A stretch of 64,000 nt of DNA from Alphaproteobacteria bacterium (GTDB lineage: Bacteria; Pseudomonadota; Alphaproteobacteria; UBA2966): contig OZ219856.1 in the NCBI GenBank assembly GCA_964291395.2, positions 2,240,001-2,304,000 of the forward strand, read 5' to 3'. The position numbers and the translations under genes were made by a program. The notes under the pieces are model-generated. The model was not told where the DNA came from. It ran no database searches and saw only the letters and a program-made list of their open reading frames with translations. The number at the start of each line of letters is the position of its first letter. The stretch's first letter is position 1. Positions 4,038-6,868 of the stretch are shown piece by piece.

Positions 4038-4067
4038 TCACTTACGGGTGTCACTTACGGGTTGACT
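4038..4067 (+). promoter_or_regulatory. 12-bp direct repeat abutting a candidate -35 box upstream of the riboswitch
   Basis: TCACTTACGGGT at 4038-4049 and 4051-4062; TTGACT at 4062-4067. No convincing -10 box. Confidence 0.4.
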
Positions 4068-4106
4068 GTGCGATACCCTTCTGCTTCAACTATCGGCTCA
4101 GGACGC

Positions 4107-4187
4107 GCTCATCCAGAGCGGTGGAGGGACAGGCCCTTTGAAACCGCGGCAACCGCTACGAGCGGTGCCAATGCCTGATCGATGAGT
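4107..4187 (+). ncRNA. SAM-I (S-box) riboswitch aptamer lacking P4
   Basis: P1 CTCATC(4108-13)/GATGAG(4181-86); J1/2 CAGA; P2a GCGGT/ACCGC with GGA...TTTGAA kink-turn; P2b GGG/CCC, loop ACAGG; P3 GGC-AA-CCGCT/AGCGG-T-GCC; pseudoknot CAGG(4130-33)/CCTG(4174-77). Confidence 0.9.
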
Positions 4188-4259
4188 CAGCCGAAGGCGG
4201 AACCCCGCTCTCGGCGCTCTTAGATAGAGCGCGTAGGAAGCGAGAGAGGAGACCGCCAG

Positions 4260-4337
4260 ATGATGGTCCTGTGCTCCCCATTCGGGGCCGATTTCCGCGA
4301 CATGTCCGCACCCGGCCGTTCGGTCGGCGGTACCTAG
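4260..4337 (+). CDS. Putative 25-aa leader peptide MMVLCSPFGADFRDMSAPGRSVGGT
   Basis: GAGAGGAG 8 nt upstream of ATG 4260; TAG at 4335-4337; lies between the riboswitch and the OsmC gene. Confidence 0.35.
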   Translation: MMVLCSPFGADFRDMSAPGRSVGGT

Positions 4338-4456
4338 TTCGCTCCGCTGCCTGAGAGACGGGAAGGACCGCCGGTCCTCCGAGCCGTTCGTTCCACGATC
4401 GTCCCGATGCCGGCCCTTCCCATTCCCCAGAGTCGAATCTCAGTGAGGAGAATCCC

Positions 4457-5020
4457 ATGACCACAACCTCAGAGAAGCCTGCCGGAAACGGCGTCAACGT
4501 CGAAGCCCTGCTCAATGCGCGCGATGCATTGGGCGAGACGCCGGAAGCCGGCAAGTTCATGTGGCGGGCCACCAACGAGTGGCTGCACGGTACCCATAGC
4601 CGGTCCTCGGTAACGGGCTACTTCGGCTTGGGCGAAGAGCACTCGCACAAGTCGGCCTTCGGCTTCGAGTCGGATCATCCCCTCGTGTTCGCCGCCGAGG
4701 ACAATGCCGCCACGCCGGTCGAGATCGTCCTCGTGGGGCTGGCGAGCTGCCTGACGGCCGGCGTTGCCGCCGTCGCCCAGAATCGGGACATCCAGCTTCG
4801 ATCGGTGAAGGCAACGGTCGAAGGCGACATGGACATCCAAGGCATCCTGGGCGCCGATCCCGACGTCCGGAACGGCTTCAGCGGCATCCGGGTCAAGTAC
4901 GACATCGATGCCGACGCCACTCCGGACGAGATCGAGGCGCTGGTCGCCCAGTCGCAGAAGCGCTCGGCGGTGTTCGACATCCTGACCAACCCGACGAACG
5001 TGACCGTCGAGGTCGGCTGA
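4457..5020 (+). CDS. OsmC/Ohr family protein
   Basis: NGVNVEAL, ESDHP...ATPVE..LVGLASCL, VEGDMD.QGILG, RNGFSGIRV; GAGGAG SD. Confidence 0.85.
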   Translation: MTTTSEKPAGNGVNVEALLNARDALGETPEAGKFMWRATNEWLHGTHSRSSVTGYFGLGEEHSHKSAFGFESDHPLVFAAEDNAATPVEIVLVGLASCLTAGVAAVAQNRDIQLRSVKATVEGDMDIQGILGADPDVRNGFSGIRVKYDIDADATPDEIEALVAQSQKRSAVFDILTNPTNVTVEVG

Positions 5021-5028
5021 TCGCCGCC

Positions 5029-6282
5029 ATGCGCACGACCACCGTCGTGGTCGGAGCCGGGCATGCCGGCCTTGCCGTAAGCCATTACCTCGCCGCAAGC
5101 TCGATCGACCACGTGTTGATCGAGCGCGGCGAGGTCGCCAATTCGTGGCGAACGGAGCGATGGGATTCGCTGAGGCTGCTCACCCCGAATTGGCAGGCGC
5201 GGGTCCCCGGTCTCGCCTACGACGGAGACGACCCCGACGGCTTCATGGACATGACCGAGGTGGTGACGTTCATCGAACGCTACGCCCGGCTCGTCGCGCC
5301 GTCGCTCGAGCCCCATACCACCGTCGAATCGGTTCGGCGGAATGGAACCGGTTACCAGGTGGTGACGGATCGCGGGGTGTGGCACGCTCCCACGGTGGTG
5401 CTCGCCACCGGCGGCTTCAATATCCCGAAGGTTCCCCCGTTCGCGGCGGACCTTCCCGGATTCGTCATGTCCTTCACCCCGATGCAGTACACGAAGCCCT
5501 CCGCCCTTCCGGACGGGGGTGTCCTGGTCGTAGGCGCGTCGGCCAGCGGGGTACAGATCGCGGAAGAAGTTCACGGCTCCGGTCGCCCGGTGACGTTGGC
5601 GGTCGGCGAGCACGTCCGCATGCCGCGGACGTACCGCGGCAAGGACATTCTGTGGTGGATGGATCGGACCGGGCTCCACGACGAGCGGTATGACGAGATA
5701 GACGACATCGGACGGGCGCGCCGGGTTCCGGCGCCCCAGTTGGTGGGAAAACCCGAGCGGACCACGCTGGACCTGAATGCGCTCACCGATCAAGGCGTGC
5801 GCCTGGTCGGTCGGTTGGTCGGGATCGCGGACGGCAAGGCCCTGTTCTCGGGCTCGCTTCGCAACAAGTGCACCCTCGCCGACCTCAAGCTGGGACGCCT
5901 CCTCGACACGATCGACGAGTGGGTCGGCAGCAACGGCCTCGACGGCCAGGTGGAGCCGGCGCAGCGTTTCGCGCCGACGCGGGTCGAGGAGTCCCCGCCG
6001 TTGGTGCTCGACCTCGCCAAGGGCGGAATCTGCACGGTCATCTGGGCCACGGGGTTCGAGCCCGACCATTCGTGGCTCCACGTGCCCGTTCTCGACCGCA
6101 AGGGCCGGCTCCGCCATGACGGCGGGGTGGTAAGCGGCTCGCCCGGGCTCTACCGCATCGGCCTCAACTTCCTGCGGCGCCGCAAATCGAGCTTCATCCA
6201 CGGGACCGGGGACGACGCCTGCGATCTGGTTGGGCACTTGGCCGCCCGGGTCGGAGCCCGCCCTCCGGGCCCACCGGGGTGA
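5029..6282 (+). CDS. FAD/NAD(P)-dependent oxidoreductase (FMO-like flavoprotein)
   Basis: GAGHAG FAD motif, WRTERWDSLRLLTPNW, ATG, VVGASASG NAD(P) motif, IWATGF; 8 bp after the OsmC gene. Confidence 0.85.
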   Translation: MRTTTVVVGAGHAGLAVSHYLAASSIDHVLIERGEVANSWRTERWDSLRLLTPNWQARVPGLAYDGDDPDGFMDMTEVVTFIERYARLVAPSLEPHTTVESVRRNGTGYQVVTDRGVWHAPTVVLATGGFNIPKVPPFAADLPGFVMSFTPMQYTKPSALPDGGVLVVGASASGVQIAEEVHGSGRPVTLAVGEHVRMPRTYRGKDILWWMDRTGLHDERYDEIDDIGRARRVPAPQLVGKPERTTLDLNALTDQGVRLVGRLVGIADGKALFSGSLRNKCTLADLKLGRLLDTIDEWVGSNGLDGQVEPAQRFAPTRVEESPPLVLDLAKGGICTVIWATGFEPDHSWLHVPVLDRKGRLRHDGGVVSGSPGLYRIGLNFLRRRKSSFIHGTGDDACDLVGHLAARVGARPPGPPG

Positions 6283-6337
6283 CGCGCCGGACGGCGGCCG
6301 GCCGCTTTTTCGAGATCCCGGCCGGCGCGCCCGGCGA

Positions 6338-6868
6338 TCAATCTTCCAAGATTTCGTAGGCCAAGCCCTGCTCGTTCTTCCAGATCTCGGTATGGGACTC
6401 GGTGTACGCGACTCCATGCCCCATGACGAGGCGGTTGATGAAGTTGTAACGCCCACAGACGGCGATCGCGAAATGGAGCGCGCCCTCCTCCCAACCGGCC
6501 TCGTAGACGGCATCGGCATCCGCCTGGACCATCTTTGCCGGCGTCAGCGTGAGCTTGCGGACGAAGCGCAAAATCGGCTTCATCCTTTCGTCTACCGACG
6601 AGGAGTCGATATCGTCCATGAGGTTGTCGAAGACATCCGCATCGACGCCGAAGGCCTCGGCGGCCATGGTGTGATCCTTGAAGCAATACTCACAGTCGTT
6701 CAGGCCCGAGACATAGGCTGCGACCAGCTCGCGTTCCGCAATCGATAGCGGTCCGGGCCCCCGCATGAGGGCCTGGCTGAATTTTCCCCATAGCAGCCAG
6801 ATGTCACGATGCGGCGCCTGTATCTCTGCGAGGCCCGCGCTCGCGGGCAATGAAGGAAAAAAGGTCAT
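6338..6868 (-). CDS. AhpD/carboxymuconolactone decarboxylase family peroxidase-related protein
   Basis: ERELVAAYVSGLNDCEYCFKDH; FVRKLTLTP; FINRLV. Confidence 0.85.
   Translation of the reverse strand: MTFFPSLPASAGLAEIQAPHRDIWLLWGKFSQALMRGPGPLSIAERELVAAYVSGLNDCEYCFKDHTMAAEAFGVDADVFDNLMDDIDSSSVDERMKPILRFVRKLTLTPAKMVQADADAVYEAGWEEGALHFAIAVCGRYNFINRLVMGHGVAYTESHTEIWKNEQGLAYEILED

Follow-up and report, generated by a model that had tools for sequence, protein, structure and literature searches.

Which genes does a riboswitch for S-adenosylmethionine (SAM) serve when it stands before two genes of no classical methionine or cysteine pathway, in a bacterial class where switches of its kind are rare? 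The question is raised by a locus in a 64,000-nucleotide (nt) stretch of contig OZ219856.1 (assembly GCA_964291395.2, positions 2,240,001 to 2,304,000, forward strand) from an alphaproteobacterium of the UBA2966 lineage; we call the whole stretch the window and number positions from its first letter. A preliminary description, made from the letters alone, had noted there a SAM-I riboswitch lacking helix P4 upstream of genes for an OsmC-like protein and a flavin oxidoreductase. In the reading that we favour, and to which we give a probability of about 0.55, the locus is a horizontally acquired methionine/sulfur-starvation operon repressed by SAM, whose two products form a complex that works as an NAD(P)H-driven thiol-redox pair. 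New here is the argument for a very widespread pair, made of a one-cysteine OsmC and a protein like the flavin-containing monooxygenases (FMOs), that acts as a complex within a SAM/sulfur-starvation regulon under a composite leader.

The riboswitch and its leader

The sole Rfam match in the window (cmscan, Rfam 15) is to RF00162, the SAM-I family, at 4106-4188 on the + strand, with 72.0 bits (E 7e-15) against a gathering score of 44.4 bits. The match spans model positions 1-108, the full model, and clan competition retained RF00162, so that the covariance-model check proposed in the preliminary description came out in favour of its SAM-I call. All model positions of P4 are deleted, and the trinucleotide AUC alone lies between the CCUG of the pseudoknot and the 3' strand of P1. 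The parts of the aptamer are as follows.

4106-4188, +, SAM-I aptamer without P4 (cmscan, covariation counts)
4107-4113/4181-4187, +, P1
4118-4122/4143-4147, +, P2 with kink-turn (K-turn)
4126-4128/4134-4136, +, P2b
4130-4133/4174-4177, +, pseudoknot CAGG/CCUG
4148-4156/4162-4169, +, P3
4178-4180, +, AUC replacing P4

As a control for this assignment we scored the 27 pairs of the SAM-I structure across 38 distinct P4-less relatives, in which 96.6% of pair cells are standard-paired, against 29-49% when the partners are slid by 1-3 columns. Compensatory changes occur in six pairs; the pseudoknot pair 29-81, for instance, is AU in 35 aptamers, GC in 2 and CG in 1. The complete core that had been described, with P1, K-turn P2, P3 and the CAGG/CCUG pseudoknot but no P4, is thus borne out by score and covariation together. 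The idea of a relic or chance match was rejected on the same two counts. By its sequence, the window RNA is a genuine SAM-I aptamer without P4 that should bind SAM.

The usual four-way junction with a P4 helix is absent from this aptamer. A literature search aimed at SAM-I riboswitches devoid of P4 gave no paper. Passages of one paper from 2025 (PMC12714719), however, report for SAM-I of an Actinomycetota group a P4 that is 'very short' or missing altogether, treat such sequences as natural SAM-I variants, and state that loss of P4 leaves SAM aptamers able to function, with lower affinity. Since the literature already records such variants, the missing P4 is a known natural variation and not new. 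It is also common in one class: of 40 SAM-I loci that we fetched from Acidimicrobiia (the class of locus L046), deliberately enriched in short matches, 30 have an aptamer without P4, 6 have P4 and 4 fall outside the search pattern.

Between the aptamer and the OsmC start lies a leader of about 270 nt holding an additional Shine-Dalgarno sequence (SD) and a short upstream open reading frame (uORF). Its features, with those flanking the transcript, are listed here.

4038-4049 and 4051-4062, +, 12-nt direct repeat, candidate promoter or operator (by eye)
4062-4067, +, TTGACT, possible -35 element overlapping the repeat end (by eye)
4103-4110, +, 5' switching strand ACGCGCUC, overlapping the first 5' bases of P1, with alternative partner 4227-4234
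4190-4215, +, hairpin directly 3' of P1, GCCGAAGGCGG / CCGCUCUCGGC, putative expression platform, conserved in the aligned leaders
4214-4234, +, local hairpin GCGCUC (4214-4219) / GAGCGC (4227-4232)
4227-4234, +, toggling 3' arm, pairing in the local hairpin or with the 5' switching strand
4242-4251, +, SD GAGAGAGGAG
4260-4337, +, uORF of 25 codons (stop included), with 1 Cys and 2 internal Met
4361-4380, +, distal-leader hairpin GGAAGGACC...GGUCCUCC, its 3' arm anti-SD-like (RNAalifold, 6 alphaproteobacterial leaders)
6286-6312, +, terminator-like hairpin and T-run closing the operon (terminator scan)

To look for an alternative to P1, we aligned the leaders of 34 loci from 12 nt upstream of P1 through the first start codon. 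In this alignment a helix between 4103-4110 and 4227-4234 is paired in 93.0% of cells, against 16-63% for slid partners, and contains 15 double-change cells, a number reached by none of 500 shuffles (4.4 +/- 1.6). Pair 11-176 is CG in 21 leaders, AU in 8 and UA in 1, and pair 12-175 is GC in 24, AU in 5 and GU in 5; leaders of metH have A-U where OsmC leaders have C-G. Because this helix is incompatible with P1, we take it as the SAM-free alternative. The SD follows about 10-25 nt beyond the downstream element 4227-4234, and is the gene's own SD in metH and thrC-like leaders and that of a short ORF in OsmC, OsmC2, metY and ssuA leaders (OsmC2 being a shorter OsmC-like paralogue). In Acidimicrobiia, an identical platform stands immediately before the metH start and before the uORF in OsmC and metY leaders, which points to control of translation initiation at the SD. 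By analogy with other SAM-I switches, the output would be translation initiation at this SD with OFF logic. The hairpin at 4190-4215, whose strands are complementary to the SD region in a constrained fold (CUCUCG/CGAGAG, GGCGG/CCGCC), may take part in the expression platform.

Further downstream, the uORF adds a possible second signal. Our heuristic called 30 uORFs in 47 leaders, some of them probably false, and these contain 50 Cys among 757 residues (6.6%) and 25 Met (3.3%), compared with 3.5% Cys and 1.1% Met when this DNA is read in its two remaining frames. Many finish in a Cys/Met cluster just 5' of a conserved stem, with a recurrent [C/M]x[C/M]SRV-type ending, and in alphaproteobacterial relatives they start with MM.LC and carry C.C. 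before the stop; an SD and uORF occupy the homologous position in L002, L007 and L009-L011. Since Cys-responsive short-ORF attenuators are described for mycobacteria in a preprint (bioRxiv 10.1101/834739), we propose that leaders of this family may act as tandem sensors of SAM and of charged Cys/Met-tRNA, a function that would be weakened in the window copy.

Other structural analyses of the leader were uninformative on mechanism, both its whole-leader minimum free energy (z -2.33) and an RNAalifold of six distal leaders, all from close relatives, which gave a covariation term of +1.81 and mostly kept the pairs of the distal hairpin (columns 113-117/129-133). A terminator scan found no intrinsic terminator in the window leader. 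Upstream of TTGACT, the 12-nt direct repeat may be a protein operator before the riboswitch promoter; a promoter scan found no + strand sigma-70-like site around 4038-4067. Four RNA runs were compared with the locus. Assembled contigs from one metatranscriptomic run, nearly identical to the window, match it as follows.

4296-4956, RNA contig of 661 nt, 2 differences, bridging the OsmC start
5465-5665, RNA contig, 2 differences
5750-6095, RNA contig, 1 difference
6071-6271, RNA contig, 0 differences

The first of these hints, weakly, at a single RNA carrying both the distal leader and OsmC; such contigs are blind to ends, strand and level, and uncovered parts (e.g. 5098-5179 and 5262-5425) carry no information. 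RNA runs holding only a small share of the locus (X16, X19 and X20) match mainly the conserved aptamer of other organisms.

A one-cysteine OsmC and its predicted flavoprotein partner

The genes behind the leader are separated by 8 nt. Domain scans agree with the preliminary description that neither is a classical methionine or cysteine gene, and identify an OsmC-like protein and an FMO-like flavoprotein binding flavin adenine dinucleotide (FAD).

4457-5020, +, OsmC-like protein, 187 aa (PF02566, 66.7 bits against a cut-off of 27.5)
4748-4750, +, codon of Cys98, the sole conserved OsmC Cys
5029-6282, +, FAD/NAD(P)H flavoprotein, 417 aa, type II FMO-like (Pyr_redox_3, 82.7 bits)
5869-5871, +, codon of Cys281 of the flavoprotein, near-invariant

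Proteins of the OsmC/Ohr family are defined by two catalytic cysteines, one peroxidatic and one resolving. In the window protein only Cys98 is conserved; the resolving position, where 2-Cys OsmC forms have the Cys of an HCPV motif, is Ser170. The 187-aa OsmC and OsmC2 are about 31% identical and have in common an N-terminal extension, an invariant Cys98 and an invariant Ser170. The closest solved structure is PDB 2opl, a 'hypothetical protein' of 187 residues (E 8.5e-37).

Class B or type II FMOs have an N-terminal GxGxxG for FAD and a further dinucleotide-binding motif. In the flavoprotein, G9, G11 and G14 are invariant, and a possible second motif is of GxSxxG type (G169-A-S171-x-x-G174). 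Its best NCBIfam match, TIGR04046 (the MSMEG_0569 family), scores 350.6 bits, below the cut-off of 498.35, and makes it a relative of that family, not a member. Matches to the PDB entries 4usq, 4usr and 4a9w (SMFMO) lie mainly over the N-terminal ~200 residues. Cys281 sits in an insertion of roughly 110 residues and is present in 15 of the 15 sequences of one alignment. Searches of the literature on the MSMEG_0569 family, and for work joining OsmC with flavin, sulfur or homocysteine, returned nothing relevant.

We modelled the complex as an OsmC dimer with FAD and the flavoprotein, using our own alignments. Three runs gave the interface score ipSAE as 0.87, 0.86 and 0.87, while the best of three controls gave 0.00; contact agreement was at least 94% and the predicted local distance difference test (pLDDT) of the partners at least 92. 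The ipSAE mark is reached by 116 of 157 solved complexes and by 2 of 215 mismatched pairs, a calibration that is only roughly valid for models built, as here, with own alignments and FAD included. In the model, the interface comprises flavoprotein residues 229, 232, 264-265, 272-279, 282-283, 286, 322-326 and 358 and OsmC residues 135-136, 142-143, 157-168, 173 and 177-184, segments that flank Cys281 of the flavoprotein and Ser170 of OsmC. The prediction supports binding between the two proteins; we know of no solved OsmC-FMO complex.

A second OsmC gene occurs in the window's own genome, a 2-Cys paralogue directly upstream of an ATP sulfurylase gene with PUA_2 and ATP-sulfurylase domains (L147:2463-4546); no Rfam riboswitch reaches its gathering score at that locus.

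Distribution, regulon and origin of the module

The family of the OsmC-like protein is very large and very conserved: of at least 8000 matches, the best 120 are 74-100% identical to the window protein. A genome scan yielded at least 590 OsmC relatives among the 599 pattern matches listed, and the locus counts that follow concern the best 80 of these genomic relatives. The genomic matches as a whole, 70-87% identical, range over Acidimicrobiia, the Alpha-, Beta- and Gammaproteobacteria, Gemmatimonadota and Acidobacteriota; the 80 loci are drawn from these groups and one Saccharopolyspora. The flavoprotein gene directly follows OsmC in 78 of the 80 loci, and the remaining two end at a contig edge. 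Clustering the ORFs of 81 loci, with Pfam on representatives, brought out no further conserved neighbour beyond small clades, and most large clusters of neighbouring ORFs are spurious high-GC frames. Past the operon terminator of the window lies a convergent gene for an AhpD/CMD-family 'peroxidase-related enzyme' (6338-6868, - strand; TIGR01926 80.4 bits against a cut-off of 81.8; PF02627), which is not a conserved neighbour in other loci.

The preliminary description expected the motif before homologous pairs of OsmC and FMO-like genes. This holds for a coherent subset, as 11 of the 80 loci have a SAM-I of 82-84 nt upstream on the same strand at Rfam gathering score, and fails for the other 69, which have no Rfam riboswitch of any class nearby at that score; SAM control is therefore no universal feature of the gene pair.

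Where the linkage exists, its context is clearest in Acidimicrobiia. RF00162 is above cut-off in 59 of 121 genomes of this class, and 31 of 80 matches are no longer than 91 nt. The first genes of the 40 fetched SAM-I loci are these.

metH, 7 of 40 loci
thrC-like enzyme dependent on pyridoxal phosphate (PLP), 9 of 40 loci, one with a ThiS-family ORF
metY-type sulfhydrylase, 5 of 40 loci
metX, 1 of 40 loci
OsmC2, the shorter OsmC-like paralogue (171-174 aa), 6 of 40 loci
187-aa OsmC with flavoprotein, 2 of 40 loci
gene without identification, 9 of 40 loci
gene cut by the contig end, 1 of 40 loci

In five of the six OsmC2 loci (L103, L105, L112, L116 and L130) a Cys/Met PLP enzyme follows, and the one scored on NCBIfam reaches 620.6 bits on TIGR01326 (cut-off 495.1). 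The genomes of L013, L035, L046 and L054 contribute four more loci, which add a metH, an SsuA-family binding protein and two OsmC2 genes. At L046 two switches stand back to back, in the order metY-like <- OsmC2 <- SAM-I and SAM-I -> OsmC -> flavoprotein -> metA. At L084 (221-1611) the switch is a SAM-I that has an extended P3 but lacks P4, and behind it come a uORF containing Cys and an SsuA-family gene, whose aliphatic sulfonate-binding protein scores 208.1 bits against a cut-off of 163.5. This company of metH, metX, metY, thrC-like and ssuA relatives strongly supports membership of the pair in a methionine/sulfur regulon, as had been suggested. The thrC-like PLP enzymes, the commonest identified first gene (L095, L096, L097:184-1751, L122, L124, L125 and L127-L129), are hints of a sulfur-carrier-dependent homocysteine route behind SAM-I.

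OsmC genes are also linked to SAM riboswitches of other classes. Screened with a profile built on both types of OsmC, 75 of 301 genomes in the window's class gave a match, a tally that includes the unpublished genome G386, used nowhere else here, and in 2 of 18 loci fetched from those matches a SAM-II (RF00521, cut-off 36) lies directly upstream of the OsmC-like gene, with 37.6 bits (L135) and 36.9 bits (L149). In L135:2859-4765, from a 1.41-Mb genome (33% GC in the 6-kb locus), OsmC begins within 27 nt of the SAM-II and is followed by a Cys/Met PLP enzyme. The only literature we found linking OsmC to riboswitches or methionine concerns SAR11 (PMC5069961, PMC2704228), the passages of which place osmC of 'Ca. 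Pelagibacter ubique' in a bhmT-osmC-ordL arrangement downstream of SAM-II/SAM-V. There, osmC is reported as the most induced transcript in sulfur limitation (50-fold in mRNA, 4.5-fold in protein) and as co-induced with bhmT and metY; the authors' own suggestion for it is tentative (PMC5069961).

How did a SAM-I switch come to stand in an alphaproteobacterium? As the preliminary description had it, the class rarely uses this type: only 3 of 61 genomes contain SAM-I, the window's own included, in agreement with a statement in Barrick & Breaker 2007 (PMC2258182) that Alphaproteobacteria are 'almost devoid' of it. One of the three is a congener with an orthologous 83-nt locus. The third match (L003:457-592, - strand, 136 nt, 56.9 bits) stands before a small ORF on a 2-kb contig, in an unrelated context. 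The window aptamer is the only RF00162 match in its genome. Scans of that genome for SAM-II (RF00521) and SAM-SAH (RF01727) gave no match, and since the control genomes were silent too, absence of these classes is not established.

We computed a maximum-likelihood tree of the concatenated OsmC and flavoprotein sequences (78 rows; quick search, LG+G4, midpoint root only; 5 of 82 loci dropped for partial matches). The window falls within a clade of eight rows (SH-aLRT support 99), all alphaproteobacterial and all bearing the riboswitch, which is nested in a 27-row clade (96) otherwise made up of 14 Acidimicrobiia and 6 unlabelled rows; the remaining 10 Alphaproteobacteria all lack a riboswitch and fall in the opposite half of the tree. 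Riboswitch presence requires at least three changes on this tree. This nesting, and the fact that P4-less SAM-I is normal in Acidimicrobiia, favour import of switch and operon together from that class, and so the horizontal acquisition that the preliminary description had proposed. Since the tree has no real root, the direction of transfer is one that we infer. Public runs containing half or more of the sampled words of 4050-6320 are mostly labelled sponge metagenome, and the host is therefore probably a sponge-associated bacterium.

What the operon may do

In the reading favoured here, SAM binding would lock P1 (4107-4113/4181-4187). When SAM is scarce, 4103-4110 would instead pair with 4227-4234, remodelling the platform and exposing the SD at 4242-4251, from which ribosomes would translate the uORF (4260-4337). 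This translation, slowed at Cys/Met codons in the relatives, may keep the ~270-nt leader from termination or closure, and the open leader would allow synthesis of OsmC and flavoprotein. The two would assemble into a complex with the single-Cys OsmC as its thiol-reactive subunit and the FMO-like flavoprotein as its NAD(P)H-driven redox partner, Cys281 acting in trans for the resolving Cys that OsmC lacks. Such a pair could be a self-contained hydroperoxide/thiol-redox system, requiring no low-molecular-weight thiol and useful when sulfur amino acids are short.

A number of our results weigh against parts of this scheme. In constrained folding the window SD is more often unpaired with P1 on (0.48) than with P1 off (0.26), and across nine leaders, folded with P1 either imposed or prohibited, SD accessibility shifted in no uniform way, a comparison that we count for neither side; because the constrained folds failed to show the expected SD loss, we take the ON/OFF logic from family precedent and helix topology. 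The local hairpin 4214-4219/4227-4232, paired in 93.1% of cells, has no compensatory change. With only 1 Cys and 2 internal Met, the window uORF has lost the terminal Cys codons of its relatives; the uORF of L013 is ATG-TGA only, those of L004, L005 and L008 are, as called, not Cys-rich, and the heuristic swept in some probable false uORFs. On the protein side, the solved structures nearest to the flavoprotein belong to monooxygenases (4usq, E 1.9e-16; 4usr; 4a9w) and not to disulfide reductases, Cys281 occurs in 93% and not 100% of 56 sequences, and Cys98 and Cys281 themselves both lie outside the contacts listed for the complex model. The OsmC proteins linked to SAM-II are of the canonical 2-Cys kind and share only 25-28% identity with the window OsmC. 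The RNA evidence consists of contigs assembled from libraries that possibly hold DNA, and the 69 of 80 homologous operons without a riboswitch count here as well.

The preliminary description had suggested that the pair may release sulfur from an organosulfur compound, for example a methylated sulfide or a sulfoxide, an idea to which our results lend no specific support. We find that a single-Cys OsmC and an interface centred on Cys281 fit a thiol-redox relay or peroxidase at least equally well, and modestly favour the thiol-redox/peroxidase pair over a sulfur-mobilising monooxygenase. The broader version of a sulfur-supply enzyme, which we regard as doubtful, has the FMO-like protein act by oxygenation or reduction on an organosulfur compound (such as a thioether, methanethiol, dimethyl disulfide) or a persulfide while OsmC carries or releases the sulfur, with sulfide or methanethiol delivered to O-acetylhomoserine sulfhydrylase. 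It would suit the type II FMOs that are the flavoprotein's nearest solved relatives and much of the genomic context: the acidimicrobial pair in one leader-controlled unit with metA, divergent from OsmC2-metY; the metY operons that OsmC2 heads at 5 of the 40 fetched loci; the SsuA-family sulfonate-binding protein under the same riboswitch type at L084; the SAM-II, OsmC and Cys/Met PLP enzyme of the small low-GC genome of L135; and the co-induction of SAR11 osmC with bhmT and metY as given in the passages of PMC5069961. Yet no transporter or lyase travels with the pair, whose neighbours are unconserved across the 80 loci, our literature search yielded no OsmC-family sulfur carrier, the FMO signature His is apparently replaced (by eye, in an alignment to 4usq), and the operons without a SAM switch speak against this explanation too.

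The way in which the leader works could also differ from our scheme. If its main output were Rho- or structure-dependent transcription termination, the uORF would be a mere ribosome-loading site of irrelevant codon content, as the poorly conserved uORF peptides and the two-codon example of L013 might suggest; a leader of 268 nt with a C-rich tract at 4410-4429 (by eye), the lack of an intrinsic terminator in it, and a hairpin with T-run before OsmC2 in one relative (L088) are in keeping with this. We nonetheless think it unlikely, as it leaves unexplained why the uORFs are enriched in Cys and Met and why such codons recur just 5' of the conserved stem, and as metH is driven directly by an identical platform with no long leader. 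It is very improbable that the aptamer is an inherited relic that has ceased to regulate, leaving the operon constitutive or under another regulator. The aptamer is the only SAM riboswitch detected in the genome and its uORF lacks the terminal Cys codons kept by relatives, as one might expect of a relic, but aptamer, switching helix and SD are intact, the score is far above threshold, and the seven other alphaproteobacterial loci are nearly identical, differing mainly by compensated changes in P3.

More tentatively, one may go beyond the SAM-repressed thiol-redox pair and suppose that OsmC proteins are overlooked general members of bacterial SAM regulons (behind SAM-I, SAM-II and, according to the literature, SAM-V), and that the pair is a hitherto unrecognised two-subunit enzyme of homocysteine/methionine synthesis with Cys281 supplied in trans and expression gated by the tandem sensor. 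If so, the OsmC-flavoprotein enzyme would prepare or protect the sulfide, persulfide or methanethiol that O-acetylhomoserine sulfhydrylase takes as its donor of reduced sulfur, and its synthesis would respond to SAM through the riboswitch and to charged Cys/Met-tRNA through the uORF. In the favoured reading, the riboswitch would assign a module of two genes, very widespread and highly conserved, to the response to sulfur-amino-acid starvation, and would offer a testable explanation for the unexplained 50-fold osmC induction in sulfur-limited SAR11. The locus would further be a case of a riboswitch travelling with its operon from Actinomycetota to Alphaproteobacteria, and its leader, in which a SAM aptamer precedes a uORF with Cys/Met codons, suggests a composite that integrates two sulfur signals.

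Several known systems invite comparison. The leader resembles the mycobacterial polycysteine attenuators, as described in bioRxiv 10.1101/834739, in that Cys-rich short ORFs precede sulfur-metabolism operons in Actinomycetota, and differs in that the short ORF, with its SD, stands here behind a SAM riboswitch and has a single Cys in the window copy. Like bhmT-osmC-ordL of SAR11, the locus has an OsmC-family gene followed by a gene for an FAD oxidoreductase, downstream of SAM riboswitches, whereas in SAR11 the riboswitches are of the SAM-II/SAM-V class and ordL is sarcosine-oxidase-like, not FMO-like (from passages of PMC5069961); at the protein level this comparison runs through the SAM-II-linked OsmC of L135 (2-Cys, 28% identical to the window protein) and not the HTCC1062 protein itself. 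With SAM-I (S-box, RF00162) the window RNA shares P1, K-turn P2, P3, the L2-J3/4 pseudoknot, the conserved core and, in relatives, control of met genes, but it lacks P4, belongs to an alphaproteobacterial host and controls non-classical genes. SAM-IV and SAM-I/IV riboswitches share the SAM-binding core of SAM-I and have no P4 in the SAM-I position; theirs is located 3' of P1, and a second pseudoknot joins the P3 loop to the 3' tail. The window RNA likewise has a hairpin after P1 (4190-4215) and no P4 in the SAM-I position, but its K-turn and first pseudoknot are of SAM-I type, Rfam clan competition kept it in RF00162, and no complement of the P3 loop for a second pseudoknot of SAM-IV type was seen in the aligned leaders, by eye only. 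The window OsmC has the fold of the OsmC/Ohr thiol peroxidases, with the peroxidatic Cys in its conserved position, and departs from them in that an invariant Ser170 replaces the resolving Cys. The AhpC/AhpF system is a two-component peroxidase, and in a similar way the window OsmC is adjoined by a flavoprotein of its own that it is predicted to bind; here, however, the partner is FMO-like and not a disulfide reductase of the thioredoxin-reductase type.

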